A stretch of DNA of 64,000 nt from an uncultured Flavobacteriaceae bacterium (GCA_963760375.1 CAVXCS010000003.1:3590-67589); one strand, 5' to 3'. Numbered from the stretch's first letter, positions 1,324 to 62,543 are shown. Numbers and translations are program-made. Notes: a model not told the origin generated them from the letters alone.

Positions 1324-1366
1324 TGATCTAAATCATTTTGGTCATGAATCATTTGTAATAATTTTG
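1324..1366 (+). promoter_or_regulatory. motif-B operator plus -7 box (promoter of 1406..1792)
   Basis: AATGATCTAAATCATT with core TGAY-N4-RTCA at 1324-1335. TTTG immediately follows. Perfect TAATTTTG at 1359-1366. The first T of the box is 29.5 bp from the palindrome centre. Confidence 0.7.
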
Positions 1367-1405
1367 GAGCAACATATGAATTGAAATTATTTTAAAAACC
1401 ATATT

Positions 1406-1792
1406 ATGGAAACCGAAGTCATTTATAATTCGAATCTGCATTTTGAACATGAACAATGGAAAGGGGAACTGTACTTCTGGAAGGATGAGCTCAAATCATT
1501 CAATATCCGCTTGAGCGAATTGGTTACCCGATGGACAAAGCAAGAGGTCTTGAAACAGTTGGAGCATTTTCAGAACGAATTTATCCTCCATGGCGGGGTC
1601 ATCGACGATTTGTTGGAAACCATAGAAAAACATGAGACCCGTATCGCCGCCCAAAGTAAAACGGGGGTGGAGGTGATGGATACCCAATTGTTCAAGAAAC
1701 ACCTCGAATTCAGAGATCAAATGGAAACCCAAAGGCAGATCTATGCGGATCTCAAAAAAGATTTCTTCAAGTTCCTTACCAAGTACATGTAG
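1406..1792 (+). CDS. hypothetical helical protein, paralog family member 1
   Basis: 128-aa ORF. Its N-terminal E-x-W-x2-EL-x-FWKDEL-x2-F signature is shared with 4004..4411 and 62016..62468. Confidence 0.6.
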   Translation: METEVIYNSNLHFEHEQWKGELYFWKDELKSFNIRLSELVTRWTKQEVLKQLEHFQNEFILHGGVIDDLLETIEKHETRIAAQSKTGVEVMDTQLFKKHLEFRDQMETQRQIYADLKKDFFKFLTKYM

Positions 1793-1876
1793 TTCATTTC
1801 CGGAACCATTCCCGTTTCGGGCAATAAATCGTACTTTACATGGGAAATCACGAGAGATAACCCAACACCAAATTGA

Positions 1877-3148
1877 ATGCAGATCCATGAGGAAATCAGC
1901 CAAATGATCGACTCCAACATCCTTGGGGTTTTGATCAGTACGGGCATTGGTCTTATCTTGGGCTTGGAAAGGGAATACGACAAGCTCAAACAAGAACAGA
2001 GTGTTGCGGGTATCCGTACCTTCCCCATTGTGACCATCATTGGTTTTTCAGTGGGTAGTCTCCGGGAACACTTTTCCCCATGGATATCGATCATGGGTTT
2101 GGGCACCTTTATCTTGATCATGGGAATCTACCAATTGTCGAGGGCGCAAACCGAAGGCACCAAGGGCCTGACCACCAATTTGGCGCTCATCGCCACTTTT
2201 ATTCTGGGCCTGATGGTCTCTGCCGAACATTATAGGGATGCGGTCGCCACGGCGGTCATCATCGTAACCTTACTCTCAATGAAGGCCAGTTTTCGCTCGG
2301 TGATCAGCAATATTACCTCCGAGGAACTTTTTGCATTTATCAAGTTTGCCATCCTTGCCCTGCTTATTTTACCATTTCTTCCCAACAGCAACTATGGCCC
2401 GGAGAAGCTGTTGAACCCTTTTGAAATAGGTTCGATCATCGTCATCGTTTCGCTGTTGAATTTTATAGGATATTTTTTGGTAAAATTTGTAGGTGCCAAA
2501 AGGGGCATCTTGTTCACGGCGGTTTTGGGCGGTCTTATCTCAAGTACCGCGGTGAGTTGGAGTTATGCCACACGAAGCAGGGAATCCCCTGAACTATCCT
2601 CCAAATATGCCGCGGGCATCAGTATCGCCTCGGCTATCATGTTTCCTAGATTGGCCTTATTGGCCTACATTTTCAACGCCAAAATTTTATGGTACCTCGC
2701 ATTGCCGTTTGGAATCCTAAGCTTGATCTGCCTGATCGTTGCCCTAACGTTGATCAAAAAGGACAGCAGCAGCATGAATACGGAAATCAAGTTGGGCAAC
2801 CCGCTCAATATTGTAAATGCCATCGGATTTGGTATCCTCTTCGTGGTGATTTCCTATGCCGTTTTTTATGCCAATCGGTTCTTCGGCGAAAGCGGACTCT
2901 ATTATTCCGCCCTGATCGCGGGCTTGGCCGATACGGATGCCATCACGATCAGCATGGCAAAATTTTCCCTTGAGGGGGAGAAGCTCCGACTTGCGGCCAA
3001 CGTAATTTTGGCCGCCACTTTGAGCAATATGTTGGTCAAATTGGGCATTACCCTTTTTAAAGGGTCCAGGACGACCGGTAAAATGGTAGGCCTTACCTTT
3101 GGGGGCATTCTTGTGATTGGCTTTTTATTTATCGTCATCCTTCATTAA
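1877..3148 (+). CDS. MgtC/SapB-family membrane protein with long polytopic C-terminal extension (DUF4010-like)
   Basis: 423-aa polytopic ORF. The N-terminal GIGLILGLEREY is an MgtC-type motif. Confidence 0.75.
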   Translation: MQIHEEISQMIDSNILGVLISTGIGLILGLEREYDKLKQEQSVAGIRTFPIVTIIGFSVGSLREHFSPWISIMGLGTFILIMGIYQLSRAQTEGTKGLTTNLALIATFILGLMVSAEHYRDAVATAVIIVTLLSMKASFRSVISNITSEELFAFIKFAILALLILPFLPNSNYGPEKLLNPFEIGSIIVIVSLLNFIGYFLVKFVGAKRGILFTAVLGGLISSTAVSWSYATRSRESPELSSKYAAGISIASAIMFPRLALLAYIFNAKILWYLALPFGILSLICLIVALTLIKKDSSSMNTEIKLGNPLNIVNAIGFGILFVVISYAVFYANRFFGESGLYYSALIAGLADTDAITISMAKFSLEGEKLRLAANVILAATLSNMLVKLGITLFKGSRTTGKMVGLTFGGILVIGFLFIVILH

Positions 3149-3217
3149 AGGCTGATTTTCACGGTTTGTCAATTGGGGTGATCGTCTTATCTTTATTATT
3201 ACTTTGAAAAAATAACG

Positions 3218-4003: not shown

Positions 4004-4411
4004 TCAGAGTTTCTTTGCATATCCAAAGACCATTTTTTTAAACTCCCGGAAGTCATTTTCGAAAATCGCGATCTTCTCCCCCAACTCACGGTGCCTTTCG
4101 CGGTAGTCCCCATCAGACAATCCTTTTTCTCCCTTGATCAGTCGTGACAACAATTGATCGTGTTCCATGATGTCTTTCACCAGATAATCGTACAGGCTGC
4201 TATGGATCGTATCGAGATATTGGAGCATTTTTCCGTACTCGGACATCTGCTGTCCCGATTTTTCCTTGTTCTTTAAAAGCGTATCGAAGAATTTGGTCTC
4301 ATCTTTCCAAAAGGCAACGGTTTCAAGCCATTCCCGGCTTTCCTGATGCAGGATATTCAAACCTGCCCCCAATAAAAATTCGATTTTGGGACTTGTTTTT
4401 GTCTTGTTCAT
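4004..4411 (-). CDS. hypothetical helical protein, paralog family member 2
   Basis: 135-aa ORF. ESREWLETVAFWKDETKFF is the same signature as 1406..1792 and 62016..62468. Confidence 0.6.
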   Translation of the reverse strand: MNKTKTSPKIEFLLGAGLNILHQESREWLETVAFWKDETKFFDTLLKNKEKSGQQMSEYGKMLQYLDTIHSSLYDYLVKDIMEHDQLLSRLIKGEKGLSDGDYRERHRELGEKIAIFENDFREFKKMVFGYAKKL

Positions 4412-4718
4412 AGTTCCAGGATTAAGAGTTCATCTTTATTCCAACTAAATAACCTGAGGCTCGATTTTAACCACTTTTGAGCAATCTTCAAAACTGTTCA
4501 ACTGCCATATACGATAAAACCACTGGATATTATACCGGGTTTCGAGGATAGAATATTCCAAAAGTCAATAGTGCTTTCCATGCCCGAACCCGTCCAATTC
4601 GCCCGTGATCAAACGACTTCATCGCTATTGCCCATGGGTCTATCCATCGCAGCCAACAGATCAAAGGGCAATTGCCTGCAACGGTATCCAAGGTAGGTAG
4701 GAATCTAAAAAAATGATA

Positions 4719-4761
4719 TGACATAAATCATATCATTCGATTGGCAAATACATTACTTTTA
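4719..4761 (+). promoter_or_regulatory. motif-B operator plus -7 box (promoter of ytxH-like operon 4803..5749)
   Basis: TGACATAAATCA at 4719-4730 is nested in a longer inverted repeat, AATGATATGA(4712-4721)/TCATATCATT(4728-4737). TACTTTTA at 4754-4761 starts 29.5 bp from the centre. Confidence 0.65.
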
Positions 4762-4802: not shown

Positions 4803-5132
4803 ATGACAGACAATAGTGGAAACGTATTATTGGCGTTATTAACCGGTGCGGCCATAGGTGCCGGTATCGGAATTTTATATGCCCCGGACAAAGGATCTGA
4901 AACCCGTTCGAAAATCAAGCAAAAAGCGAAGGATGCAAAACACGACCTTACCGATCGCATTTCGCATGCCAAGGACGAACTGACCAAGACCGCCAAGGAA
5001 AAAAAGGACGAGTTCGAGCAAAAATTGGAGGACACCATTTCCCAGATGAGCTATAAGGCAGACGATATCATCGCCACTTTGGAGCACAAATTGGAAGAGC
5101 TCAAGAAAAAGAACGCCCAATTCCAGAAATAA
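4803..5132 (+). CDS. YtxH-domain protein
   Basis: An N-terminal TM with GAAIGAGIGILYAPDKGSETR, then a charged helical tail, is typical of the YtxH family. Confidence 0.75.
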   Translation: MTDNSGNVLLALLTGAAIGAGIGILYAPDKGSETRSKIKQKAKDAKHDLTDRISHAKDELTKTAKEKKDEFEQKLEDTISQMSYKADDIIATLEHKLEELKKKNAQFQK

Positions 5133-5138
5133 CGGCCC

Positions 5139-5489: not shown

Positions 5490-5749
5490 ACTACCACTAC
5501 AGCTCTTTCAAGGAAATCGATGAACGCCTTAGGATATTGGCCCTGCAACGGGAAATCAGCAAGGAGAGCCTAAAGCTGAACCTTTATTCTGCCAAAAGGG
5601 ATATATTTCCTTCCCATATTATCAGCGGATTGAGCGGTTCGCTCCAAAAATTGGTGCTCACTTGGGTGCTTAAAACAATGGTGGCCAAGTTTCGCAAGCC
5701 CAAGGAAAAAGAAGTTTCCGAACAAACCAAGGTCGATCAACTGAACTGA
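5486..5749 (+). CDS. hypothetical protein
   Basis: 87-aa ORF overlapping the previous stop by 4 nt (ATGA coupling). No family recognised. Confidence 0.45.
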   Translation: MNYHYSSFKEIDERLRILALQREISKESLKLNLYSAKRDIFPSHIISGLSGSLQKLVLTWVLKTMVAKFRKPKEKEVSEQTKVDQLN

Positions 5750-6807
5750 GCCACTTTTTTTAGGGCCTCTTTGTCTTTCAATATGATTTTTCTTCCCTGA
5801 TCGGTGGTGATCAATCCTTCATCCTTGAAATCGGACAAGGTGCGGATCGCGGTTTCGGTCGCGGTTCCGATCATCCCGGCAAAATCTTCCCTTGGGATCC
5901 CGACTCCATTATTCGCCCTATCCTGAACAATCCCTTTCTCGAACAACTGTAATAGTGCCTTGGCGGCCCTTTGCCGCACCGAAGCATATGCCATATCCAC
6001 CAGGTGCTCTTGAACATCGATCAAATTGGCCGACATCATGGTGATGAACTTCTGCGAAATCACTTGGTTGCTGAAAAGTAGGTTGGTGAATTCCTCTTTT
6101 GGAATGGCATACAGGTTGGCATCCTCAACCACTTTTGCCGTTTCAATATACCTTCCGTCGCTGTTGAGCAATGACAGTTGCCCTACGAAGTCGCCCGCAC
6201 TGTAGATGCCCGTAACGAATTCCTTCCCTGATTCAGTGCCCACATAGGTCTTTACCGTACCACTTTCGATGAGATAGAGGGCATGGGCACCATCCCCTTC
6301 CCAAAAAACGAATTCGTTTTTTTCATATTTTTTCAGATCGTGCGATTTGGAAAGACTTTCCAAATCGATATGATTAGAGGCCCCTTCGAGGAAGTTATTG
6401 ATGCCGGAAAGGTTTTTGGCTATTTCTGTTTTCAGGAAATCGCGCTTTTGAAGGCGGCTCTGTATGGCATCCAACAATTCCTGTTCTTCAAAGGGTTTGG
6501 TTAAATAATCATCTGCGCCGAGGTTCATCCCCTCACGGACATCGGCCCTACTGGTCTTTGCGGTTAAAAAAATAAACGGGACGCCCGCAGTACCGCCATT
6601 TTGGTTCAATTGGCGCAACACCGAATAACCATCCATTTCCGGCATCATGATATCACAGATCACAATGTCGGGCAAAAATTCAAACGCCATGGCGATACCG
6701 ATTTTGCCGTTTTCCGCCGTGGCCACTTCGTAATTGGCCAATCTTAGGATTTCTGCCGTATTTTCCCGCACATCCATGTTGTCTTCAATAAGCAGTACTT
6801 TTTGCAT
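5737..6807 (-). CDS. response regulator: REC + cNMP-binding + Crp/Fnr-type HTH (RR-Crp1)
   Basis: REC motifs (LLIEDN...DIVICDIMMPEMDG...LTAKT...GADDYLTKPF), a cNMP-binding beta-roll (FWEGDGAHALYLIESGTVK) and a C-terminal HTH (GTATETAIRTLSDFKDEGLI, about 5833-5895). Confidence 0.9.
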   Translation of the reverse strand: MQKVLLIEDNMDVRENTAEILRLANYEVATAENGKIGIAMAFEFLPDIVICDIMMPEMDGYSVLRQLNQNGGTAGVPFIFLTAKTSRADVREGMNLGADDYLTKPFEEQELLDAIQSRLQKRDFLKTEIAKNLSGINNFLEGASNHIDLESLSKSHDLKKYEKNEFVFWEGDGAHALYLIESGTVKTYVGTESGKEFVTGIYSAGDFVGQLSLLNSDGRYIETAKVVEDANLYAIPKEEFTNLLFSNQVISQKFITMMSANLIDVQEHLVDMAYASVRQRAAKALLQLFEKGIVQDRANNGVGIPREDFAGMIGTATETAIRTLSDFKDEGLITTDQGRKIILKDKEALKKVAQFS

Positions 6808-9343
6808 CTTCTTTTAAATTTAATGGAATTTCAATGGTAAAGGTGCTTCCCTTACCCACCTCACTTTCAAAATCGATGGTACCGCCCACCAGGTCGATGT
6901 ATTGCTTCACGATATGCAGGCCCAGTCCCGTACCTTGAATATTGGCCGCATTGGCGGCCCTAAAAAACCGATCGAACAGGTTTTTCTGCTCTGCTACCGG
7001 AATACCGATTCCCCGATCGATCACTTCGATTTTGGCACGGCCCCGTTCGCTCGACACCAGACAGGTGATTTCTTGATCCTCGTTCGAATATTTTATGGCA
7101 TTCGACAATAAGTTGTTGATCATATGGCCCAGCATCTTTTTATCGGAACAAGTGATGATTGGATCTGCGGACGTTTTCAAGACCAATTGCTGACCCTCTT
7201 TTTTGTTGATTTCCATCTCTTCCATCAAGGATTTGATATAAGAGGAAATATCAAAATATTCCGGTTTGGGCTTCACCTTGCCTTCTTCCAACTTGCTCAA
7301 GGAAAGGAAATCATTGAGAATGACCACCAAATTTTTGACGTTCGCTTTGATCCTGTCAACATGTTTCTCCCTTCTCTCCTCCTTACCAGGTTCATTTTGT
7401 TTGCCGATAAGAATGGCGGAGGAAAGGATGGCACTCAATGGGGTACGGAATTCATGGGAGGCCATCGATATGAAGCGCGATTTTAATTCGTTGAGTTCCC
7501 TTTCGCTGATCAGTGCCTTGAGCAATTCATCCTGTACCATTTTTTGATCGGTGATATTGCTATATACAAACAGGCCCCATACTATTTTGTCATCGGAATA
7601 GAGGGGAGTTGAATTGATCGAATAGACGTTTTCGTTGTATGTGATCTCATCGGTGGCATGTTCGCCGCTTAGGGTTTGAAGCACCAGGGCTTGGATTCTT
7701 TCGATTTGGGCCGTGGAAAATTCCGGGATATCCTCTAGGCGTTTTCCCTCCAAATCGCTCTTTTTTAGATGCAACCGCTCCAATTCTTCCCCTTCAACAT
7801 ACACAATTTCAAGATTTTGATTGAAGACGACAATGATACCTTTTGGAAAATTTTGGGCGATTGCCGAAATCAATGTTTGGCTCCTTAGCGCTTTGTCCTC
7901 AGCGATTTGGGTTTCCTTGATTTGATCTTCCAAATTAAGATTGCTCTCCTTCAATTGCTGCACCGTCGCATTCAGTTCCCCGGTACGTGCCCGTACTTGG
8001 TCTTCCAGGTTTTGGGTATATTTTTCCAATTTCCTTTGACTGGCCTCCAATTCGATTCCGATTTGATTTTGGTGGATGGCCAAAGCCGCCAGTTGTGAAA
8101 GATCGGCCATGATTTCCCTATCGGTTTTAAGCGGAATTTTAGGGGATTCACAATACACCGAAAAGGTACCCAGCACCTCTTGATTCTTTGAAATAATGGG
8201 TATTGACCAGCAAGATTTCAAGTTGTTTTCAAGGGCAGTTTCATGATAGGCCTTCCAATAGGGATCTTTTGCAAAATCGGGCACGAACACCTCTCTTTTG
8301 GTGTAGGCCGATACACCGCAGGAACACCCTTCGGGACCCACTGGCATTCCCTCCAAGGCTTTTTGCAAGGCCTTGGGCAAACTTGGGGCCGCCAATTGGT
8401 GCAAGGTGCCCTTTTTGTGGTCAAGAACCGTAATGCTCGCCATACAGCCCTGAAAATGCGCTTCTGCAGCCCTGACAATATAATTTGCAATGACTTTGAG
8501 GGGTTGGTCCATCGCGATTTTCTCCAAGATCCTTCGGATATCATCTTTAAGTTGCAGGGCCTTTTTCTCCTTGGTCACATCATGCTGTACGCCGATAAAA
8601 TGGGTCAGGTTTTGTTCTTGGTCATATACCGGGGTAATGGTGAGTTCGTTCCAGAACAGGGTGCCATCTTTGCGGTAATTTCGAAGTACCACCTTACAGT
8701 CGTTCCCTTTTTTGATGGCTTTTCGCAGTCTTTTCAAAGCGGGTTGATTTCGATCTCCGTTTTGTAAAAAGCGGCAGTTACGACCCAAAACTTCACTGTT
8801 TCGGTATCCCGTCATGCGGCTAAAGGCCGGGTTGCTATAGATAACGGGCATTTCGGGATCAAGCGCATCCGCTATCAAAATACCGTTGCCGGCAGCGTTC
8901 AGGGCCCTGTTGCGAACATCAAGGGAATTTTGTACCGATAGTGTATGGGCCACCGATTTGGCCATGGTCGATATTCCTTTGAAGGTATCATGGGTGCGGT
9001 TCACAAAGGCAAGCGCTATAGGTTGCTCTTTTTGGCGCAACGACACCAACTTGAGCTTCAAGTTCATAGGGTTGTCTTCTTTGTCATGGCCCACGAATTC
9101 AAGGCTGGCATCACCGTTGAGCTGTCGCAATTGGTCCAAGAGCGCCTTGCGATCGGCTTTTGCGATGTGGTCCACCAATTTTCGACCCGCCATTTGATTG
9201 GAGGCGTACCCGAATAAGTTCAAAAAGGAGGGATTGGCCATAACGATCTTGCTGTTCAAATCAAGAAGGCCGACCGCTTCCGAACCGTAGTCGAAGACGT
9301 GCTTAAAAATAACCGAATCTGTAATTTGTGCCATCATGTTCAA
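6785..9343 (-). CDS. PAS-LOV-GAF-PAS sensor histidine kinase (HK1)
   Basis: 852-aa ORF. The track start at 9343 is TTG; the first ATG is at 9337. It has a LOV signature GRNCRFLQ, a GAF-like middle region, HisKA (SHEFRTPL) and HATPase (GTGLGL...GKGSTF) motifs. It overlaps the RR gene by 23 nt. Confidence 0.9.
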   Translation of the reverse strand: MNMMAQITDSVIFKHVFDYGSEAVGLLDLNSKIVMANPSFLNLFGYASNQMAGRKLVDHIAKADRKALLDQLRQLNGDASLEFVGHDKEDNPMNLKLKLVSLRQKEQPIALAFVNRTHDTFKGISTMAKSVAHTLSVQNSLDVRNRALNAAGNGILIADALDPEMPVIYSNPAFSRMTGYRNSEVLGRNCRFLQNGDRNQPALKRLRKAIKKGNDCKVVLRNYRKDGTLFWNELTITPVYDQEQNLTHFIGVQHDVTKEKKALQLKDDIRRILEKIAMDQPLKVIANYIVRAAEAHFQGCMASITVLDHKKGTLHQLAAPSLPKALQKALEGMPVGPEGCSCGVSAYTKREVFVPDFAKDPYWKAYHETALENNLKSCWSIPIISKNQEVLGTFSVYCESPKIPLKTDREIMADLSQLAALAIHQNQIGIELEASQRKLEKYTQNLEDQVRARTGELNATVQQLKESNLNLEDQIKETQIAEDKALRSQTLISAIAQNFPKGIIVVFNQNLEIVYVEGEELERLHLKKSDLEGKRLEDIPEFSTAQIERIQALVLQTLSGEHATDEITYNENVYSINSTPLYSDDKIVWGLFVYSNITDQKMVQDELLKALISERELNELKSRFISMASHEFRTPLSAILSSAILIGKQNEPGKEERREKHVDRIKANVKNLVVILNDFLSLSKLEEGKVKPKPEYFDISSYIKSLMEEMEINKKEGQQLVLKTSADPIITCSDKKMLGHMINNLLSNAIKYSNEDQEITCLVSSERGRAKIEVIDRGIGIPVAEQKNLFDRFFRAANAANIQGTGLGLHIVKQYIDLVGGTIDFESEVGKGSTFTIEIPLNLKEDAKSTAY
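8573..8908 (-). other. LOV (flavin, blue-light) domain inside HK1
   Basis: GILIADA...PVIYSNPAFSRMTGY...GRNCRFLQ...RNYRKDGTLFWNELTITPV...FIGVQHDVT. The adduct-forming Cys codon is at 8774-8776. Confidence 0.85.
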
Positions 9344-9466: not shown

Positions 9467-9509
9467 CAAATGTATCATAGCTATCTCCGTATTAAAATGA
9501 TATTGGTCA
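9467..9509 (-). promoter_or_regulatory. motif-B operator plus -7 box (promoter of HK1/RR-Crp1 operon)
   Basis: AATGATATTGGTCAGC with core at 9498-9509. On the minus strand a perfect TACATTTG lies at 9474-9467, starting 29.5 bp from the centre. The operator is flanked by two copies of the palindrome ATAGCTAT (9477-9484, 9512-9519). Confidence 0.7.
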
Positions 9510-13841: not shown

Positions 13842-13884
13842 CTAAAGTACGTACAGCGCCACCTCGGCAAAATGACCTAGGTCA
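13842..13884 (-). promoter_or_regulatory. motif-B operator plus -7 box (promoter of hsp20 / P-type ATPase)
   Basis: AATGACCTAGGTCAGG with core at 13873-13884. On the minus strand TTTG follows directly, and TACTTTAG lies at 13849-13842, 29.5 bp from the centre. Confidence 0.65.
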
Positions 13885-24256: not shown

Positions 24257-24299
24257 CAAATGTACCGGACCATGCCCGTGTAGAAAATGATATAGGTCA
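24257..24299 (-). promoter_or_regulatory. motif-B operator plus -7 box (promoter of 24218..23547, probably also 23451..22567)
   Basis: AATGATATAGGTCATG with core at 24288-24299. Minus-strand perfect TACATTTG at 24264-24257 starts 29.5 bp from the centre. Confidence 0.7.
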
Positions 24300-34014: not shown

Positions 34015-34067
34015 AAAACTCGAAGTTTATCATGGTCAAGCGCATGATGAAGATCAGTTTTTCGAAT

Positions 34068-36678: not shown

Positions 36679-36752
36679 CGAAAATACCTTTGAACGGCAG
36701 GTACAACAATGATAATTATCATATGAATGGCCAAGGCTTACCGCTATTTTTG
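36679..36752. promoter_or_regulatory. motif-B operator with -7 boxes on both sides (divergent promoters: pfkB and M50-CBS/Crp3)
   Basis: AATGATAATTATCATA with core at 36710-36721. Plus-strand perfect TATTTTTG lies at 36745-36752 and minus-strand TATTTTCG at 36686-36679. Both start 29.5 bp from the centre. Confidence 0.65.
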
Positions 36753-38163: not shown

Positions 38164-38211
38164 GATACTGATCAGTATCATCTTCTTTAGAGACAGACTG
38201 TTGTATCTTAA
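38164..38211 (+). promoter_or_regulatory. 16-bp perfect palindrome containing a weak motif-B-like core, plus weak -7 box
   Basis: GATACTGATCAGTATC at 38164-38179. The TGATCAGTATCA core at 38169-38180 fits TGAY-N4-RTCA. TATCTTAA at 38204-38211 starts 29.5 bp from that core's centre but has two mismatches to TAnnTTTG. Confidence 0.35.
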
Positions 38212-44464: not shown

Positions 44465-44489
44465 ATAGGCCACAATTATCGTGGCCTAT
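44465..44489. terminator. hairpin between convergent slipin and ATPase genes
   Basis: A 9-bp stem, ATAGGCCAC (44465-44473) / GTGGCCTAT (44481-44489), with a 7-nt loop. It overlaps the last codons of the ATPase gene. Confidence 0.55.
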
Positions 44490-47351: not shown

Positions 47352-47518
47352 AATGGTCGTGCTTTAATGAATTGAACATGCAAAATAGGGCGCTAAGGTA
47401 TAAAATAATATGACCGTCATCATACCTATAATATTGGTAAGGCTTGATTTTGCCTACACTTGGAGACTCAATTTGGCCTGTTTCAAGCCTAAAAAAATGG
47501 GCCCCGATTTGGCTTAAG

Positions 47519-47562
47519 TGACCTAAGTCATTTCGAATGATAAAAAAGGAACCTAATTTTTG
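47519..47562 (+). promoter_or_regulatory. motif-B operator plus -7 box (promoter of 47606..47899)
   Basis: AGTGACCTAAGTCATT with core at 47519-47530. TAATTTTTG at 47554-47562 starts 29.5 bp from the centre but has one extra T relative to TAnnTTTG. Confidence 0.6.
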
Positions 47563-48640: not shown

Positions 48641-48683
48641 TAAATGTAAAGAATATTTGAATGCAACATCATGACCCAAGTCA
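48641..48683 (-). promoter_or_regulatory. motif-B operator plus -7 box (promoter of 48580..48071)
   Basis: CATGACCCAAGTCAGC with core at 48672-48683. Minus-strand TACATTTA at 48648-48641 starts 29.5 bp from the centre. Confidence 0.6.
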
Positions 48684-51094: not shown

Positions 51095-51137
51095 TGATAT
51101 AAGTCATTTATGGGCTCAAAAAACACCCTTATTTTTG
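51095..51137 (+). promoter_or_regulatory. motif-B operator plus -7 box (promoter of hpf-usp operon)
   Basis: AATGATATAAGTCATT with core at 51095-51106. Perfect TATTTTTG at 51130-51137 starts 29.5 bp from the centre. Confidence 0.7.
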
Positions 51138-54134: not shown

Positions 54135-54177
54135 CAAATCTAACTTTAAATTGATTTTCGAGATATGATAAATGTCA
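54135..54177 (-). promoter_or_regulatory. motif-B operator plus -7 box (promoter of terB-deoC-deoD operon)
   Basis: TATGATAAATGTCAGT with core at 54166-54177. Minus-strand perfect TAGATTTG at 54142-54135 starts 29.5 bp from the centre. A plus-strand TAATTTTG at 54189-54196 lies only 17.5 bp from the centre. Confidence 0.65.
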
Positions 54178-54200
54178 GTTATAAAAGCTAATTTTGAAAC

Positions 54201-55724
54201 ATGCAGGTTTTTCAAAAGAACAGTAATATTTTCAACTTGCTTTCGGAAGGGGTGTCCGAAGGCATTATTGTCGTCAATAATGAACAGGTGATTGTGGCCA
54301 CCAATTCGTCCGCGGAGGAGATGTTCGGTTATTCAAAGGATGAATTATTGGGACAATCGTTGAATCTACTGATTCCAACAAAGCATCGACATGCGCATAA
54401 AAATTATGTGACCCATTTCGTGGACAAAAGTGAAAAACGTCAGATGGGTCGAGGTAGAAACCTGTACGGCCTGCACAAAAATGGGGAAGAGTTCCCCCTC
54501 GAAGCGGGTTTAAATCCCTTTGAACTTTATGGATCCCATTATGTCATGGCCCTGGTCATGGATATTACCGAGCGAAAGAAGGCCGAAAAGGAACTGATCC
54601 ATTGGTCGACGATTTTTAACGAATCATTAAATGAGATTTTTATTTTTGATGCGAAGACCCTCCATTTTAAAAATGTGAACAAGGGCGCTCTGAAGAATAT
54701 GGGCTATGATTTGGAAGAATTCAGGAAATTGACGCCCGTTGACATCAAACCCATGTACGATGAAACCGGATTTCGAAATCTGATCGCCCCGTTGCTCGAC
54801 CGGCAAAAGGAAAAATTGGAATTTGAGTCCTTGCACCAACGAAAGGACGGTACTACCTATCCGGTGGAAGTACACTTGCAGATGTCTGACTTGAGCGAAG
54901 AAAAAGTGTTCGTTGCGATCATTTTGGATATTACCGAGAGGAAGAACTATACGGAAAAATTGGAAAGGACCGTTGAAGAACGCACCAAACAGCTCACCGA
55001 TGCCTTGGCGAAGGAGAAAGAACTCAACGAACTGAAGACCCGTTTTTTATCCCTGGTCTCCCACGAGTTCAAGACCCCGTTGAGCAGTATCCTGACCTCG
55101 GTCACCCTGCTGTCGAAATACGACCGGACAGAACAACAGGGCAATCGGGAAAAGCATGTGGACACCATCAAAAACAAGGTGCGTTATTTAGATGCCATCC
55201 TCAACGATTTTCTTTCCCTGGAGCGTTTGGAATCGGGGAAGGTGAATTACAAAATAGATCGCTTTCCCTTGAGCAAATTGATAAACGAAGTGGTATACGA
55301 TGCCAATATGTTGTTGAAGGAGGGCCAAAAAATAATATACCCCCATGATATCGATCATATTACAGTGGCGTTCGAGGAGAAGATCTTAGAGTTGGCCTTG
55401 TCGAATTTGGTACACAACGCCATTAAATATTCGGCCGAGCATACCGTGGTGGAAATTCAGGTGAAGAAAGACAACCAGCTCTTGGAGCTCGATATTATCG
55501 ATCAAGGAATAGGCATTCCGTCCCAAGAGCAAAAACATATTTTTAATCGTTATTTTAGGGCGGAGAACGCCCTCCTGAGCCAAGGCACGGGAATTGGGTT
55601 GAGCATCACCAAACAACATCTTGAAAATTTGGGCGCTTCCCTTAGTTTTGTCAGTGAAGAAAATAAAGGATCTATATTTACGATAAAAATTCCGGAAAAC
55701 ATGGCAGCGAAAGCCACTTCATGA
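54201..55724 (+). CDS. PAS-PAS sensor histidine kinase (HK2)
   Basis: Two PAS domains, HisKA (SHEFKTPL) and HATPase (GTGIGL...NKGSIF) motifs. The C-terminal half is clearly paralogous to HK1. Confidence 0.9.
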   Translation: MQVFQKNSNIFNLLSEGVSEGIIVVNNEQVIVATNSSAEEMFGYSKDELLGQSLNLLIPTKHRHAHKNYVTHFVDKSEKRQMGRGRNLYGLHKNGEEFPLEAGLNPFELYGSHYVMALVMDITERKKAEKELIHWSTIFNESLNEIFIFDAKTLHFKNVNKGALKNMGYDLEEFRKLTPVDIKPMYDETGFRNLIAPLLDRQKEKLEFESLHQRKDGTTYPVEVHLQMSDLSEEKVFVAIILDITERKNYTEKLERTVEERTKQLTDALAKEKELNELKTRFLSLVSHEFKTPLSSILTSVTLLSKYDRTEQQGNREKHVDTIKNKVRYLDAILNDFLSLERLESGKVNYKIDRFPLSKLINEVVYDANMLLKEGQKIIYPHDIDHITVAFEEKILELALSNLVHNAIKYSAEHTVVEIQVKKDNQLLELDIIDQGIGIPSQEQKHIFNRYFRAENALLSQGTGIGLSITKQHLENLGASLSFVSEENKGSIFTIKIPENMAAKATS

Positions 55725-55816: not shown

Positions 55817-56869
55817 ATGAAGAGCGTACTTTTAATCGAAGATGATAAGGCCCTTAGGGAAAATACCGCCGAGCTGCTCGAACTATCGAACTATGCTGTA
55901 ATGACCGCTTCCAATGGGATTATCGGGATACAAATGGCCAAAGATCACCGGCCCGACGTTATTGTATGCGATATCATGATGCCGGAACTCGATGGATACG
56001 GCGTGCTCCAAAGCCTGGCCTCCCATGAAAATACCGTAAACATTCCCTTTATTTTTCTTTCGGCCAAAACAGAGCACAAGGAAATCAGAAAGGGGATGGA
56101 CCTTGGCGCAGACGATTACCTGACCAAACCTTTTGAGGAAGACGACCTGATCAGCGCCATTGAGAGCAGGCTGGCCAAGGCCGAGATATTGGCAAGAATG
56201 AACCAGGCACCTCCGGTTAGATCGGAAATTTCGGATGAAGAGATGCGGTCCTTGAACGAACTCAAGAATTTTTTTGATGATAATGGGGAAGAGGAACGCT
56301 TTGCCGAAGGTCAAATGATCTTCAAGGAAGGTACGCACACCCATAAAATTTACCTTATCCTAAAAGGCTTGGTGAAATGTCATAAAATCGATGCCGATGG
56401 GAAGGAATTGATCACCTCCCTTTACAGGGCAGATGATTTTTTGGGACTGACCTCTTTTATCAACAACGTGCCCTATCAAGAATCGGCAACGGCCATGGAG
56501 GAAGTGGTACTTGTAGGCATTTCAAAGTCGCGGTTAAAGGACGTTTTGGAGCAAAACCATTCCATTTCGCTGGAACTGATGGAACTCTTGACCCAAAACA
56601 TTACCGATATCAAGGGCCAATTGTTGCAGATGGCCTATAGTTCCGTGAGAAAGAAAACCGCCCAAACCCTGCTGCAGTTCGCAGAGGTCTTGAATAAAAA
56701 AACAGAAGATCCCATCAAAATTTCAAGGAACGATCTTGCCAGTGTAGCGGGCATCGCCACCGAAACCCTGATCCGTACGCTTAGCGGATTCAAGAAAGAA
56801 GGCCTCATCGCCATCGAAGGCAGGAACATCAGGATCAAGGAATTGAAAGCCCTGCATCACGTATCATAG
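55817..56869 (+). CDS. response regulator: REC + cNMP-binding + Crp/Fnr-type HTH (RR-Crp2)
   Basis: Same architecture as 5737..6807 and clearly paralogous (LLIEDD...DVIVCDIMMPELDG...GADDYLTKPF). HTH GIATETLIRTLSGFKKEGLI at about 56723-56785. Confidence 0.9.
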   Translation: MKSVLLIEDDKALRENTAELLELSNYAVMTASNGIIGIQMAKDHRPDVIVCDIMMPELDGYGVLQSLASHENTVNIPFIFLSAKTEHKEIRKGMDLGADDYLTKPFEEDDLISAIESRLAKAEILARMNQAPPVRSEISDEEMRSLNELKNFFDDNGEEERFAEGQMIFKEGTHTHKIYLILKGLVKCHKIDADGKELITSLYRADDFLGLTSFINNVPYQESATAMEEVVLVGISKSRLKDVLEQNHSISLELMELLTQNITDIKGQLLQMAYSSVRKKTAQTLLQFAEVLNKKTEDPIKISRNDLASVAGIATETLIRTLSGFKKEGLIAIEGRNIRIKELKALHHVS

Positions 56870-56907: not shown

Positions 56908-56950
56908 TGATATTTATCATAACGGGATTTTATTTAGGGAGCTACATTTG
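56908..56950 (+). promoter_or_regulatory. motif-B operator plus -7 box (promoter of USP-2)
   Basis: AGTGATATTTATCATA with core at 56908-56919. Perfect TACATTTG at 56943-56950 starts 29.5 bp from the centre. Confidence 0.7.
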
Positions 56951-57854: not shown

Positions 57855-57897
57855 TGATAATTATCATAGATTTTAGCGACCTGCAACCATACTTTTG
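57855..57897 (+). promoter_or_regulatory. motif-B operator plus -7 box (promoter of USP-3/4/5 operon)
   Basis: ACTGATAATTATCATA with core at 57855-57866. Perfect TACTTTTG at 57890-57897 starts 29.5 bp from the centre. Confidence 0.7.
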
Positions 57898-58041: not shown

Positions 58042-58893
58042 ATGCTGATGAGAACTGTTTTGATTCCCACCGATTTTTCCGCAAATGCCCGTCATGCCAT
58101 TGATTATGCATTGCAACTCTATAAATGCGAAAAGACCAATTTTCATTTTTTGCATGCCTATTCCGATTCGTTTTACGACTTGTTCAAGGCGGCCAAAACA
58201 GATAAAGTAGAGGAGCAGAAAGAAAAGGCCAAGATCAAATCGGATGCTTCCCTTCAAAAGCTTTTGGAAGAAGTAAGCTCCAAGACGAATAATCCGTTGC
58301 ATACCTACATGTCCATTTCCGCTTTCGACACCTTGGTCGATGCCGTGAACGATTTTGCCAATAAAATAAATGTAGATGCTGTGATCATGGGTACCAAGGG
58401 AGAAACTGCCGACAAAAAGATCACCTTCGGAAGCCACACGGTTCAAGTGTTCAAATATGTAAAATGCCCTGTTTTGGCCATTCCACAACAATGTGAATAC
58501 CAACAACCCAAAAAAATTCTTTTTCCGACCGATTATATGCTGCCTTACAAACGAAGGGAGCTCAAACTCCTCAACGATATGGCGGCCCAATTCAAATCTA
58601 AGATCTACTGTCTGTATTTCTCCGATTTTGAAGAGCTGAGCAATAGGCAGATCGACAACAAAAGGTTCCTGAGGGAATCGCTTTCCAAGGCCTATCTTTT
58701 TTACGAAAGACTGCCGGTCGACAACAAGGCCAAAGCTATTTTGGACTATATCGACAAAAACGATATTTCAATGCTGGTGATGGTGAATTCGCGCCATTCT
58801 TTTTTGGAGGATATGCTCTATCGCTCAACCGTCGATGAAATTGGGTTGCATGCCAACATTCCATTTTTGGTCATGCAAAACCTGCCCAGATAA
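58042..58893 (+). CDS. universal stress protein, tandem Usp domains (USP-3)
   Basis: VLIPTDFSANARHA..., MGTKGETADKKITFGSHT, C-terminal ...IPFLVMQNL. Confidence 0.85.
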   Translation: MLMRTVLIPTDFSANARHAIDYALQLYKCEKTNFHFLHAYSDSFYDLFKAAKTDKVEEQKEKAKIKSDASLQKLLEEVSSKTNNPLHTYMSISAFDTLVDAVNDFANKINVDAVIMGTKGETADKKITFGSHTVQVFKYVKCPVLAIPQQCEYQQPKKILFPTDYMLPYKRRELKLLNDMAAQFKSKIYCLYFSDFEELSNRQIDNKRFLRESLSKAYLFYERLPVDNKAKAILDYIDKNDISMLVMVNSRHSFLEDMLYRSTVDEIGLHANIPFLVMQNLPR

Positions 58894-58909
58894 TTTGATC
58901 CCTTACGAT

Positions 58910-59764
58910 ATGAAGAAAATACTTTTGCCCACCGATTTTTCTGAAAATGCATGGAATGCCATTGCCTATGCACTGGAATTTTTTAAAAATGAAAACTGCA
59001 CCTTTTACATCCTGCATACCTATACCCCTTTGTTCTATCGATTGGATTATATGATGGGCGGTCCGGAATTCAGTGCCGTTCCCGATGTAGGTGTCGATTT
59101 GTCGCTGGCGGGCCTGGAGAAAACCATGACCGACATAAAATCGCGCCATCCCAACAAAAAACATAGTTTTAAAACCGTTTCCGCCTTCAACACCCTCACC
59201 GATGAGATCAACAACCTATGTGAAAGCCATAAGATCGATTTGATCGTGATGGGGACCCAGGGGGCTACCGGAGCCAAGGAAATATTATTGGGCACCAATA
59301 CGGTGTACGTGATCAGAAAGGCCAAGGTGCCCGTATTGGCCATTCCGGAAAATTTCCGTTTCAAGCCGGTCCAAAAGATTTTGTTCGCAGTGGATTATTG
59401 GTCCCGCTATAAGGAGGCCGAGCTTAGATTCCTGAACGAAATGATTCATTTAAATGCCGCAAAGTTGATGGTGATGCATGCCGGTGAAGAGCAGGAATTG
59501 AAGGAAGTGCAGACCAAGAACAAAGCCTATCTGATGGATTATTTTAAGTCGATCGATGCGAAGTTCGAAGAAATGAAAGATCGGTACATGCCCAATGCCG
59601 TTCATGACTACATCGCTGAACAAAGCATAGACCTATTGGCCATGATGAACCGAAAACATTCATTTTTGGATAGACTGTTGGTCAAGCAGAATATAGATGC
59701 CATTGGGTACCATGTCAAAATTCCGTTTTTGGTAATGAAAGACACCGCAAAAATATCTAAATAA
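58910..59764 (+). CDS. universal stress protein, tandem Usp domains (USP-4)
   Basis: ILLPTDFSENAWNA..., MGTQGATGAKEILLGTNT. Start moved to the ATG at 58910, 17 nt after the USP-3 stop. Confidence 0.85.
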   Translation: MKKILLPTDFSENAWNAIAYALEFFKNENCTFYILHTYTPLFYRLDYMMGGPEFSAVPDVGVDLSLAGLEKTMTDIKSRHPNKKHSFKTVSAFNTLTDEINNLCESHKIDLIVMGTQGATGAKEILLGTNTVYVIRKAKVPVLAIPENFRFKPVQKILFAVDYWSRYKEAELRFLNEMIHLNAAKLMVMHAGEEQELKEVQTKNKAYLMDYFKSIDAKFEEMKDRYMPNAVHDYIAEQSIDLLAMMNRKHSFLDRLLVKQNIDAIGYHVKIPFLVMKDTAKISK

Positions 59765-59771
59765 GTAGCCG

Positions 59772-60614
59772 ATGCATAACATATTGCTGCCCACCGATTT
59801 TTCAGATGACGCATGGAATGCCATTTTTACTGCGCTAAAACTCTTTAACAAAGAAGAATGTAAGTTTTATCTGTTGAATGCCTACGAGCCCAATCTGCTG
59901 AACATTCTGGGCGACAAAAGTGAACAGCGCCTCGCGGCCATCTACGATTCCCTCGCCACCGAATCGCAACTGAAACTAAAGGAATCGTTAGCATACCTGA
60001 TCAAAAATCACGAGAATCCGAAACACAGTTTTGAAACTGTTTCAAAACGGGACGGCTTGGTGAATGCGGTTCGAGACCTTCAAAAACAACAGGGTTTTGA
60101 GCTGGTGGTCATGGGCACCAAAGGGGCGACCGGGGCAAAAGAGGTTTTTGTGGGGAGCAATACCGTTAAGGTGATCAAGGATATGCGGACTTGTCCGATT
60201 TTGGCGGTGCCGGGAGATTATAATTTTCAGGTATTGAAACAAATCGTTTTACCGACCGACTATACACATACATTTAAGGGGCCGGCACTTGCGTTGCCCA
60301 AATCCCTGGCCAAAAAGTGGGGTGCGCTGATCCACATCCTGTACGCCTCATCGGGACAAGATCTTGACCGGGAACAGCAAACCCATAAAAAACAGCTCGA
60401 GGCCCTCTTGGATGGTCTTCATCTAAACTTCCAGGAAATTGCGTTACAGGCCGATGTGTCGGATGCCATTGAAAGTTACGTTGGCGAGATCAATGCAGAT
60501 TTACTTATTTTGGTGCATCACCGGCACAGCTTTTTCGAAAAATTGACCAGGGAGGCGGTCATCAAAAAAATAGCCTTCAAATCGGAAGTTCCTTTATTGG
60601 TCATTCCTGATTGA
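59772..60614 (+). CDS. universal stress protein, tandem Usp domains (USP-5)
   Basis: ILLPTDFSDDAWNA..., MGTKGATGAKEVFVGSNT. It starts 8 nt after the USP-4 stop. Confidence 0.85.
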   Translation: MHNILLPTDFSDDAWNAIFTALKLFNKEECKFYLLNAYEPNLLNILGDKSEQRLAAIYDSLATESQLKLKESLAYLIKNHENPKHSFETVSKRDGLVNAVRDLQKQQGFELVVMGTKGATGAKEVFVGSNTVKVIKDMRTCPILAVPGDYNFQVLKQIVLPTDYTHTFKGPALALPKSLAKKWGALIHILYASSGQDLDREQQTHKKQLEALLDGLHLNFQEIALQADVSDAIESYVGEINADLLILVHHRHSFFEKLTREAVIKKIAFKSEVPLLVIPD

Positions 60615-60651: not shown

Positions 60652-60927
60652 TTATAAAGCGATGTCCGATTTGAAATCGCCTTGCATCCAGTTCTTGGAG
60701 TCCGGGGCGGTACAATTATAATCGGTTATCGGATGACCGATCCTGCGAAGTTCCTGTTTTACCTTTTCAAAACAACCGGGGCTGTCATATAGAAAGGAAA
60801 CCATCCCCCCGATGATATCGATGTCGACGATCCTGATATCGAGGATGCGACTGAGGTTTCTCATAATGGTATTCTGCGATTCGATCGATTTTAAATCTTC
60901 AATTTTTGCGGTGGCTTTCATGGGCAT
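60652..60927 (-). CDS. hypothetical small protein
   Basis: 91-aa ORF with a beta-alpha-beta-like pattern. No metal-binding CxxC motif and no family recognised. Confidence 0.45.
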   Translation of the reverse strand: MPMKATAKIEDLKSIESQNTIMRNLSRILDIRIVDIDIIGGMVSFLYDSPGCFEKVKQELRRIGHPITDYNCTAPDSKNWMQGDFKSDIAL

Positions 60928-60943: not shown

Positions 60944-60985
60944 CAAAATTAAGGAAATGGTGACGCCTTTAAAATGACCTGGGTC
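60944..60985 (-). promoter_or_regulatory. motif-B operator plus -7 box (promoter of 60927..60652)
   Basis: AATGACCTGGGTCATG with core at 60974-60985. Minus-strand perfect TAATTTTG at 60951-60944 starts 28.5 bp from the centre, one bp off the usual spacing. Confidence 0.55.
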
Positions 60986-61044
60986 ATGTGTGTGCTTTTT
61001 TATTTTACCTTGGTTTGTAATTCTAAATAAATAATGGGGATCTA

Positions 61045-62019
61045 ATGGTCAAAGAATATGTCATAGGCATCGATATCGGGGGTACTTTTACCAAAATCGG
61101 ACTGGTGGATGCGGAAGGAGCCGTCCTTAAAAACACCGTCTATAAGACCGGGGCAAATGCCGCTTTTGGAGATTTCTTGAAAAAGTTGGAAATGGAAGTG
61201 GTCCTGCTCAAAAACGCACTCAATGACAATGATAGGCTGATATCGATCGGGGTAGGCGCCCCCAATGCCAATTATTTGACCGGAAATATGGAACATCCCG
61301 TGAATTTTAGATGGGGCGATATAGTACCTTTGGTCACTGAAATCGAAAAACTATTTGGATTGCCGGTTCATATTGCCAATGATGCCAACGCTGCCGCCTT
61401 GGGCGAACTGTATTTCGGGTCGGGAAAAAATATGAAGGATTTTGTGATCCTGACTTTGGGTACCGGACTGGGCAGTGGTATCATCGCCAATGGCGAAATT
61501 TTAAGAGGGGCCCACGGCATGGCGGGGGAAATCGGCCACGTGAACGTAGACCCCAACGGGCGTAATTGCAAATGTGGCCTTCAGGGCTGCTTGGAGACCT
61601 ATGCGTCGGTAACCGGCATTAAAAGGACGGTTTTTGAGCTGTTGGCCGAAATGACCGATGAATCCTTGATGCGGCAGATAAGCTATGATGAAATGACCGG
61701 CGAAACAATTGCCAACGCCGCCCTGGAAGGCGATGTGGTCGCCTTGAAGGCGTTCGAAAAAACCGCTTCGGTCTTGGGCAGTAAAATGGCAGACACCGCC
61801 GCCCACCTCGATCCCGAGGCTTTTATTTTGAGTGGGGGACTCAGCAAGGCCGGGGCCATCCTTTTAGATCCCGTAGTCGCCAGTATGGAAGAAAACCTGT
61901 TTAAGGCCTACAAGGGCAAAATCAAGGTCATGATTTCCGACCTTCCGGGTGCAAGTGCGGTTTTGGGTCCCGCTGCCTTGGCATGGCAGCAGATCGATCG
62001 CTCCAAAACCAAAGCCTAA
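61045..62019 (+). CDS. glk: ROK-family glucokinase
   Basis: N-terminal ATP motif IGIDIGGT. ROK Zn motif GHV...C.CG..GCLE (EIGHVNVDPNGRNCKCGLQGCLE). Confidence 0.8.
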   Translation: MVKEYVIGIDIGGTFTKIGLVDAEGAVLKNTVYKTGANAAFGDFLKKLEMEVVLLKNALNDNDRLISIGVGAPNANYLTGNMEHPVNFRWGDIVPLVTEIEKLFGLPVHIANDANAAALGELYFGSGKNMKDFVILTLGTGLGSGIIANGEILRGAHGMAGEIGHVNVDPNGRNCKCGLQGCLETYASVTGIKRTVFELLAEMTDESLMRQISYDEMTGETIANAALEGDVVALKAFEKTASVLGSKMADTAAHLDPEAFILSGGLSKAGAILLDPVVASMEENLFKAYKGKIKVMISDLPGASAVLGPAALAWQQIDRSKTKA

Positions 62020-62468
62020 CGTTCCAACAAATGCTCCAAGCGCTCGCTGTCGACCACAAATTCGGTCAACTTAAAAAGCTCTTTTCGGTTGACGCGCACA
62101 CTTTTGACGAATGCTGCGATCTCATCTTCCAATTCCTCATGATCGGCGCGAAATACCTTGGTGTTGAATTTTGTGGAATCATCGATAAGTCGCGCGATCT
62201 GTGACAGATGGTTGTCCAATCGATCCAGCAGTTTATCGCAGGCCAAGGTATCTTCAAGAATATTCTGGCCAATGGTCTGCACCGCCTTCAAATTCTCCGT
62301 TTTGGTGATCCAGATAAAATATTTGTCCAGAAGATGGTGAAGGAACTTCAAATCGTCTTTGTAAAAAAGCAGATCCGATTTCCAATGTTCCGTCAAAACA
62401 TAAAGTTCTTGCCACTGTGAATTTTGCAAATAGTTGTCTTTTGGACGCATTCTATAGTCATTCATCAC
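62016..62468 (-). CDS. hypothetical helical protein, paralog family member 3
   Basis: QWQELYVLTEHWKSDLLFYKDDLKFL signature, as in 1406..1792 and 4004..4411. Confidence 0.6.
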   Translation of the reverse strand: MMNDYRMRPKDNYLQNSQWQELYVLTEHWKSDLLFYKDDLKFLHHLLDKYFIWITKTENLKAVQTIGQNILEDTLACDKLLDRLDNHLSQIARLIDDSTKFNTKVFRADHEELEDEIAAFVKSVRVNRKELFKLTEFVVDSERLEHLLER

Positions 62469-62500
62469 ATTCGAATTTAAGTGAAAAAATAATTGTCTAT

Positions 62501-62543
62501 TAAAGGTAGTTTGGACAATTCTGGGAATACATGATTTCGGTCA
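62501..62543 (-). promoter_or_regulatory. motif-B operator plus -7 box (promoter of 62468..62016)
   Basis: CATGATTTCGGTCATG with core at 62532-62543. Minus-strand TACCTTTA at 62508-62501 starts 29.5 bp from the centre. Confidence 0.6.

Follow-up and report, generated by a model that had tools for sequence, protein, structure and literature searches.

We report that a short palindrome, TGAY-N4-RTCA, recurs in the intergenic DNA of a 64,000-nucleotide stretch (hereafter the window) from an uncultured Flavobacteriaceae bacterium (GCA_963760375.1 CAVXCS010000003.1:3590-67589), and that it forms with the TAnnTTTG -7 box a rigid composite promoter, which is conserved across the Bacteroidota phylum in linkage with genes for a regulator that unites a response-regulator receiver and a Crp module in one polypeptide. 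This regulator has a recognition helix compatible with the palindrome, and the associated sensor kinases contain heme-PAS or LOV domains. Given this combination of sequence features, we consider it likely that the palindromes are class II activator sites of the regulator, in effect a fused "FixJ-FixK" protein, and we infer from the same features its binding, the activation of the promoters, the dependence on phosphorylation and the signals involved.

Detection of the palindrome and its enrichment in intergenic DNA

The repeated palindrome is real. We scanned the whole window with the pattern TGAYNNNNRTCA and recovered 24 matches, as against 4.54 +/- 2.09 in dinucleotide-preserving shuffles, the maximum of which was 10. 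After the window was partitioned with a gene map of open reading frames (ORFs) with Pfam support, its intergenic DNA (6,691 bp) contained 18 of these matches, as against 0.55 predicted from composition, and its coding DNA (57,309 bp) contained 6, as against 3.9; by our own arithmetic the Poisson p of the intergenic count is about 1e-21. This bears out the intergenic enrichment claimed in a first-pass annotation of this DNA, which had put the chance expectation at fewer than one intergenic match. All 15 palindromes listed there were found in their places, though the coordinates mark the 12-nt core and one of them, 60974, must read 60975. The list was nevertheless incomplete, as three further exact intergenic matches exist at 34045, 42777 and 47411.

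Spacing relative to the -7 box and the motif logo

The palindromes are locked in phase with the -7 box. At nine sites (1324+, 9498-, 24288-, 36710+, 51095+, 54166-, 56908+, 57855+ and 60975-), the strand of the downstream gene contains a perfect TAnnTTTG, with exactly 29.5 bp between its first T and the palindrome center. The first-pass annotation had correctly recognized this spacing but counted eight such sites, and the single perfect box that it placed at 28.5 bp was a product of the 1-nt coordinate slip at 60975. A composite pattern consisting of the palindrome, N23 and TAnnTTTG, with at most one mismatch overall, gave 19 matches in the window at the gap of 23 and 0-1 at the neighboring gaps within 20-26. 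Seen from the side of the boxes, the window has 14 perfect -7 boxes between genes and 33 boxes within genes; an exact palindrome at the 29.5-bp offset accompanies nine of the former and none of the latter, which again upholds the fixed distance. Start codons mostly follow their box at 15-55 nt, as real promoters would show, and mostly at 24-55 nt among the genes behind the sites of the window. That marine flavobacteria use this -7 box has been confirmed earlier, and it is for this point only that we cite that work (PMC7641319).

A set of 41 sites was assembled using TGA-N6-TCA plus a perfect box, with no constraint on the pyrimidine or purine positions. Position 4 was a pyrimidine in 39/41 and position 9 a purine in 38/41, and the Y/R rule drawn from the original sites thus holds without having been built into the search. 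The oriented logo reads aaTGAy-N4-rTCATtTt, followed by 21 uninformative positions and then TAntTTTG, with all the information confined to the palindrome, the proximal TTT and the -7 box. Its two 5-bp half-sites, whose TGA/TCA cores are 6 bp apart, are conserved to an equal degree. The promoter-side T following TCA is seen in 39 of the 41 sites, and the distal flank is A in 22, C in 16 and T in 1. With A or C on the distal side, it is the proximal half that runs into a -33-like T-run. The single distal T in 41 sites also distinguishes the motif from the TTGAT-N4-ATCAA anaerobox. Hence, the "FNR geometry" earlier ascribed to it applies to the TGA/TCA cores and the half-site spacing, but neither to the full anaerobox nor to the regulators, which have no Fe-S cysteine cluster.

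Palindromes with a box at 29.5 bp on both sides number five, namely 1324, 4719, 36710, 60975 and possibly 51095. Because the site is symmetric, each of these (51095 possibly) would serve two divergent promoters, 59 bp apart.

Sites and promoters in the window

The sites, with the strand of the promoter, the -7 box and the downstream genes, are as follows:

1324..1335, both strands: palindrome TGATCTAAATCA, apparently common to two divergent promoters; + box TAATTTTG at 1359-1366 before the ORF 1406-1792, and - box TTATTTTG at 1293-1300 before the ORF 867-1274
4719..4730, both strands: palindrome TGACATAAATCA; + box TACTTTTA at 4754-4761 before the YtxH operon 4803-5749; a - box, TACCTTGG at 4688-4695, faces the ORF 4004-4411
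9498..9509, - strand: palindrome TGACCAATATCA; perfect box TACATTTG at 9467-9474, upstream of the operon for the LOV-GAF kinase and receiver-Crp regulator #1
13873..13884, - strand: palindrome TGACCTAGGTCA; box TACTTTAG at 13842-13849 before Hsp20 (13342-13806), which is followed on the same strand (-) by a P-type ATPase (10518-13220)
24288..24299, - strand: palindrome TGACCTATATCA; perfect box TACATTTG at 24257-24264 before a DUF6799 protein (23547-24218)
34045..34056, - strand: palindrome TGATCTTCATCA; one-mismatch box GAGTTTTG at 34014-34021 before an MBL-rhodanese gene (32529-33944); a weaker site than the others, absent from the earlier list
36710..36721, both strands: palindrome TGATAATTATCA, apparently common to divergent promoters; + box TATTTTTG at 36745-36752 before PfkB (36775-37740), possibly continuing through a class II ribonucleotide reductase (RNR; 41040-42749), and - box TATTTTCG at 36679-36686 before an M50-CBS peptidase (35575-36660)
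38169..38180, + strand: weak candidate TGATCAGTATCA; box TATCTTAA with two mismatches, before flavin-reductase/M20/RNR genes
47411..47422, - strand: palindrome TGATGACGGTCA, uncertain and absent from the earlier list; imperfect box TATTTTGC; precedes an unannotated 58-aa membrane ORF at 47175-47351(-) and then a P-type ATPase at 44476-46980(-)
47519..47530, + strand: palindrome TGACCTAAGTCA; box TAATTTTT at 47554-47561 before a Zn-ribbon protein (47606-47899)
48672..48683, - strand: palindrome TGACTTGGGTCA; box TACATTTA at 48641-48648 before the ORF 48071-48580
51095..51106, + strand: palindrome TGATATAAGTCA; perfect box TATTTTTG at 51130-51137 before a hibernation-promoting factor (~51165-51461) and a tandem Usp gene (51476-52318)
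54166..54177, - strand: palindrome TGACATTTATCA; perfect box TAGATTTG at 54135-54142 before the ORF 53708-54112, DeoC and PNP
56908..56919, + strand: palindrome TGATATTTATCA, directly after receiver-Crp regulator #2; perfect box TACATTTG at 56943-56950 before a tandem Usp gene (56998-57831)
57855..57866, + strand: palindrome TGATAATTATCA; perfect box TACTTTTG at 57890-57897 before tandem Usp genes (58042-60614)
60975..60986, both strands: palindrome TGACCTGGGTCA, apparently common to divergent promoters; perfect - box TAATTTTG at 60944-60951 before the ORF 60652-60927, and + box TTGGTTTG at 61010-61017 before a ROK glucokinase (61045-62019)
62532..62543, - strand: palindrome TGACCGAAATCA; box TACCTTTA at 62501-62508 before the ORF 62016-62468

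We agree with the earlier grading of 38169 as weak, in view of its two box mismatches. The intergenic palindromes at 42777-42791 and 47411-47425 share a common extended sequence, TGACCGTC(G/A)TCATA, and are without a good -7 box at 29.5 bp.

The window constitutes a stress-gene island. Directly behind the phased sites lie five tandem Usp genes, Hsp20, the ribosome hibernation factor, the YtxH operon and PfkB, along with the ROK glucokinase, the M50-CBS peptidase, the Zn-ribbon protein and several small unknown ORFs. The two P-type ATPases and the class II (NrdJ/Z) RNR, the latter identified by TIGR02504 at 672 bits against a cut-off of 400, occupy operon positions behind such genes. No cbb3 oxidase genes were found in the window. 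The C-terminal part of an acetate kinase gene (79-561) runs off its left end, and ack-pta belongs to the same island, beside phased sites, in two related loci (L081 and L083; see below). Two adjacent genes, one for an MFS transporter at 14027-15218(+) and the other for a uracil phosphoribosyltransferase at 15244-~15899(-), each contain a frameshift that divides them in comparison with the 94%-identical L083, and are either pseudogenes or assembly errors.

Receiver-Crp regulators

Two proteins with the fused architecture are encoded in the window, each after the gene for its own sensor kinase:

5737..6807, - strand: receiver-Crp regulator #1, REC + cNMP-like + HTH_Crp, 356 aa, recognition helix TATETAIRTL
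6785..9343, - strand: sensor kinase #1, PAS, LOV (GRNCRFLQ), GAF, HisKA and HATPase
54201..55724, + strand: sensor kinase #2, FixL/DosP-type heme-PAS, second PAS, HisKA and HATPase
55817..56869, + strand: receiver-Crp regulator #2, REC + cNMP_binding + HTH_Crp, 350 aa, recognition helix IATETLIRTL

The two regulators are 42% identical to each other. For the regulator that was used as query, the closest relatives are 96% and 94% identical, and the nearest named ones, Maribacter, Arenibacter and Saonia, are at ~70%. All of the best 120 homologues (120/120) have the receiver and the Crp module in one protein with the same three-domain architecture. The family comprises 1,624 representatives of 50% identity clusters at E <= 1e-30; among the top 150 of these, nearly every one is a full-length protein of ~350 aa. 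In the receiver, E8, D9, D52 and K104 are invariant, and T82 nearly so. Searches of the PDB yielded no chain that spans both the receiver and the Crp module.

The T-E-T-x-I-R recognition helix is invariant across the family. In an alignment with E. coli CRP and FNR, its Glu and Arg align with E181/R185 of CRP and E209/R213 of FNR. These are the residues that read the G:C pair of TGA. CRP R180 is replaced by T and FNR S212 by Ile, and the lack of these equivalents fits a TGA core without the TGTGA or TTGAT flanks. The contacts for cAMP (E72, R82 and S83 in CRP) are not kept either, with a Q for E72 and no R-S pair, and the motif is without TGTGA. No Cys aligns with any cysteine of the FNR cluster, the N-terminus being the receiver domain. 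No NCBIfam model was matched at its cut-off: CRP scored 77 bits (cut-off 266), FixK 72 and Fnr 71 (cut-off 228). The receiver-Crp proteins are not members of the FNR, CRP or FixK equivalogs.

The first-pass annotation had proposed three Crp-type proteins in the window as candidate binders. This stands for the two receiver-Crp proteins, whose E-x-x-x-R helix suits TGA...TCA, but not for the third, a plain Crp protein (34939-35571), the recognition helix of which is S-R-V-V-I-S-R, with no Glu. We also considered the presence of two sub-motifs (TGATA..TATCA and TGACC..GGTCA), one for each paralogue, and rejected this as neither gene neighborhood nor orthologue splits them cleanly.

Sensor kinases

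The heme-PAS domain of kinase #2 has FixL domains as its best relatives in the PDB (E 5e-15), followed by DosP, with both the proximal His and the distal Arg aligned. The FixL-like proximal His is invariant in 22 kinases encoded directly upstream of the regulator in distant Bacteroidota loci (see below), or 23 together with kinase #2 of the window. In the FixL-like kinase genes of the window (54189-54203) and of three distant loci (L021, L009 and L022), a perfect -7 box is found only 12-14 nt before the ATG, which implies a leaderless or near-leaderless mRNA.

In kinase #1, the LOV domain (window 7200-7550) is canonical, with the GXNCRFLQ motif in the form GRNCRFLQ and matches to LOV structures (E 4e-40), and a GAF domain comes next in the protein. 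The reactive Cys was retained in 6/6 of the Flavobacteriaceae orthologues examined, which represent six genera, and this LOV domain is hence a candidate light input to the stress regulon. The location of site 9498 in front of the kinase #1/receiver-Crp #1 operon implies autoregulation. For kinase #2, autoregulation from a conserved position was considered and rejected, given that the arrangements vary among loci.

Conservation across Bacteroidota

We compared the window with five other Flavobacteriaceae loci, L081 and L083-L086, which derive from Saonia, Maribacter, Cellulophaga, Pseudozobellia and one 94%-identical metagenome-assembled genome. A conserved order of Hsp20, ATPase, patatin (divergent), kinase, regulator and, on the opposite strand, the YtxH operon is seen in these loci, and the palindrome with its box at 29.5 bp is kept at the Hsp20, kinase, YtxH, PfkB and Usp promoters. 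The Hsp20-promoter site (13873) is kept in L081 and L083-L086, the YtxH-promoter site (4719) in L083, L085 and L086, and a site of the form TGACCAAT(A/G)TCA at the kinase #1 promoter in L081, L083, L084 and L086; the PfkB site is present in L081, and the bidirectional layout of 1324 recurs in L083 at 15464. In the orthologous promoters the TGA/TCA cores and the spacing are kept while the N4, the Y/R positions and the flanks vary, which is the pattern of a transcription-factor site. The conservation upstream of orthologues on which the first-pass annotation depended is therefore seen in all five loci.

A distant set comprised 25 loci in Flavobacteriales, Cytophagales, Chitinophagales and Sphingobacteriales, all with full-length homologues of the regulator (40-48% identity). 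In this set the spacing between palindrome and TAnnTTTG peaks at two values only, 29.5 bp (9 sites) and 51.5 bp (13 sites); at the sites of the latter kind, another palindrome, of degenerate sequence, follows 22 bp downstream. Pairs of palindromes 22 bp apart, with the strong one distal, were noted in L005, L006, L009, L011, L013-L015, L017 and L025 (Chitinophagales, Sphingobacteriales and other non-Flavobacteriaceae). In the window, a search at -10 to -33 bp found no second upstream palindrome, and the sites are single.

The composite motif tracks the regulator genes. The Flavobacteriaceae regulator loci contain it 48 times in 105 kb, and the 25 distant loci 34 times in 398 kb, with a further 23 occurrences at +22 bp. 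By comparison, 186 kb of Bacteroidota control loci without the regulator, which had been retrieved by matches to the receiver alone, gave 0 matches, and 697 kb from other phyla gave 3. In related genomes the motif thus recurs around homologous receiver-Crp genes, and each computational check suggested in the first-pass annotation turned out in favor of its interpretation. A FixL-like kinase gene lies directly upstream of the regulator in 22/25 distant loci, and a phased site directly after the regulator gene, as at 56908, is found in L005, L012, L013, L014, L017, L021 and L025. The genes behind phased sites in the distant loci include Usp (6), Hsp20 (3), FixI-type ATPase (3), fused ccoNO (2) and FixS (1), as well as Pyridox_ox_2, CBS, RIC/hemerythrin and thioredoxin. 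The distant-locus targets are the classic FixK/FNR microoxic targets plus the stress set of the window.

Proposed mechanism of regulation

We propose that (A/C)TGAY-N4-RTCAT is the operator for dimers of a Bacteroidota-specific response regulator consisting of a receiver, a cNMP-like barrel and a helix-turn-helix. Two such regulators would each be controlled by their own kinase, one with a heme-PAS input sensing O2, redox state or a gas, and the other with a LOV and GAF input sensing blue light. Upon phosphorylation, the regulator would bind a single site, the center of which precedes the sigma-A -7 box by 29.5 bp, counted to the first T. Assuming that the TA of TAnnTTTG represents -12/-11, which is our own reading of the Bacteroidota promoter literature, the site center would be at about -41.5. 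Here the dimer would abut or overlap the -33 element and activate the sigma-A RNA polymerase in the class II manner, and at the bidirectional sites one symmetric dimer could fire two divergent promoters. The operon of kinase #1 would be positively autoregulated through site 9498. Since both paralogues have the same recognition helix, the oxygen/redox/gas and blue-light signals may converge on one operator. The predicted regulon in the window includes at least 14 sites and ~19 promoters, for genes of stress and low-energy survival. The system would amount to a FixL-FixJ-FixK cascade reduced to one two-component step, driving a low-oxygen regulon akin to DosR and lxa.

It should be noted that several points weigh against this interpretation. 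The position of -41.5 presupposes that the first T of TAnnTTTG is at -12, and repression would also be conceivable from a site that overlaps the -33 region. The linkage with the receiver-Crp genes is one of proximity, such that a Crp/Fnr paralogue encoded elsewhere could bind, and the sequence of the sites does not separate the two paralogues. Half of the distant kinases have M, L or I in place of the FixL distal Arg, and their ligand may accordingly differ. At the kinase #2 promoter, the 54166 palindrome read on the + strand is 17.5 bp, and not 29.5 bp, from the box (TAATTTTG, 54189-54196), and this arrangement is not conserved. Finally, the AlphaFold model of regulator #1, built from a 10-sequence alignment, is of low confidence (mean predicted local distance difference test score, pLDDT, of 68).

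Alternative explanations

The binder could instead be a conventional single-module Crp/Fnr protein, either the plain Crp at 34939-35571 or one encoded outside the window. Such a gene is indeed present in the window, one distant-locus target encodes a cNMP-binding protein, and the association of the motif with receiver-Crp genes is positional only. However, the plain Crp has in its helix no Glu to read the G:C of TGA, its own neighborhood has a variant palindrome, TAACATAGGTTA, and in four orders the motif accompanies the receiver-Crp genes, placed immediately ahead of or behind them. We therefore regard a conventional Crp/Fnr binder as unlikely in general, and the plain Crp, from its helix, as an unlikely one in particular. 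The variant palindrome is found at the TauE promoter near the plain Crp gene, 29.5 bp from a perfect box, TACATTTG (34888-34895, -), and suggests a second Crp-type regulon with the same promoter geometry. Behind the plain Crp gene (window 28801-35571) are genes for an SQR-type flavoprotein, cytochromes c, a rhodanese, an MBL-rhodanese dioxygenase and a TauE exporter, and the plain Crp probably runs this adjacent sulfide-oxidation-like cluster and not the regulon under consideration.

Alternatively, the palindrome could be a repressor operator, with the dimer blocking the -33 region while bound and its release freeing the stress genes from repression. The overlap or contact with the -33 region would allow this, as would the kinase #2 promoter, where the palindrome falls within the interval from -33 to -7. 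Nevertheless, base-pair-exact spacing in ~100 promoters across the phylum typifies class II activation, whereas repressors tolerate variable overlap. The second preferred position, exactly 22 bp further upstream and with a weaker proximal site, fits the tandem sites of an activator, and the many boxes with one mismatch in the window are consistent with activator-dependent promoters. Repression through these sites thus appears quite improbable.

An alternative-sigma element, a repeat or mobile remnant, or chance in intergenic DNA that is AT-richer than coding DNA is effectively refuted by the 18 intergenic matches where 0.55 are expected, by equally conserved half-sites and single sites serving divergent promoters, which indicate a dimeric protein, by a downstream element that is the housekeeping TAnnTTTG box, by the lack of conservation in the 21 nt between palindrome and box and in the DNA beyond, which rules out a repeat or mobile element, and by the absence of any structured-RNA match to Rfam anywhere in the window.

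Relationship to known regulatory systems

Of the known systems, the FixL-FixJ-FixK cascade of alpha- and beta-proteobacteria, with its K-box TTGA(T/C)-N4-(A/G)TCAA, offers several parallels to the receiver-Crp system proposed here: a heme-PAS kinase with a proximal His, a Crp/Fnr-type output with an E..R helix, TGA/TCA cores 6 bp apart, and candidate targets that include Usp and Hsp20 and, in distant loci but not in the window, genes for cbb3 oxidase and its maturation. Unlike in that cascade, the receiver and the Crp module form one polypeptide, with no separate FixJ (REC-LuxR) and no transcriptional relay. Further differences from FixK are the A/C rather than T in the distal flank, the Bacteroidota -33/-7 promoters and the paralogous pair with a LOV kinase. 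In the class II promoters of E. coli FNR and Pseudomonas Anr, TTGAT-N4-ATCAA is located at -41.5. The window sites resemble these in half-site spacing, in their inferred position relative to the core promoter and in the low-oxygen physiology of the targets, but the regulator has a receiver instead of the N-terminal Cys cluster and Ile at the position of S212, and the outer T is missing from the box.

A second likeness, in gene content, is to the mycobacterial DosR regulon and the Burkholderia lxa locus. Shared with DosR and lxa are tandem Usp, Hsp20/alpha-crystallin, PfkB, class II RNR (NrdJ/Z), a P-type cation ATPase, an M50-CBS protein, a ribosome hibernation factor and flavin/nitroreductase-like genes. 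As with DosS/DosT-DosR, control would be by a heme-sensing two-component system, here judged from domain content. In contrast, DosR is a NarL/LuxR-type protein with a tandem 20-bp box, as opposed to a Crp-type output with a single class II site, and the sensor in the present case is heme-PAS or LOV, not the heme-GAF of DosS/DosT. The lxa locus of Burkholderia cenocepacia contains six Usp genes that are induced by low oxygen (PMC9104464). Like the alphaproteobacterial LovK and LOV-HK and Bacillus YtvA, which feed general stress responses, kinase #1 has a LOV domain with an adduct-forming Cys and shares an operon with a regulator of stress genes; it differs from them in having an extra GAF domain and a receiver-Crp output that would act directly at sigma-A promoters, rather than through partner-switching or a sigma-factor cascade.

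In our assessment, a fused two-component regulator probably acts here on Bacteroidota promoters through a class II operator of the Crp/Fnr kind, and both the regulator family and the operator differ from those of DosR and lxa. The literature searched (including PMC3590769 and PMC8510549) yielded no account, for Bacteroidota, of either the receiver-Crp regulators or this motif; census reviews of response regulators were outside its scope, and an earlier mention of the domain architecture is possible.

Significance

With about even confidence, we propose that this is a phylum-wide module of Bacteroidota, in which a FixL-like heme kinase acts on a single FixJ+FixK protein, and to which marine Flavobacteriaceae have added a LOV kinase with a paralogous partner. 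The regulator would directly activate a hypoxia/dormancy regulon through one class II site per promoter, with a gene content that has converged on those of DosR and lxa, and oxygen and light would be integrated on the same operator. If true, Crp-type proteins would represent a new output class for two-component signaling, the FixLJ-FixK relay could fit in one protein, and these sites would supply a clean example of class II activation at -33/-7 promoters, where very little has been described of how activators work. Being simple, the motif lends itself to genome-wide regulon annotation. Aerobic and marine Bacteroidota play a major part in degrading algal and particulate carbon and are exposed to anoxic microzones and light gradients; if confirmed, our reading would give them a defined low-oxygen and light stress regulon, complete with its operator, promoter geometry and candidate regulators.

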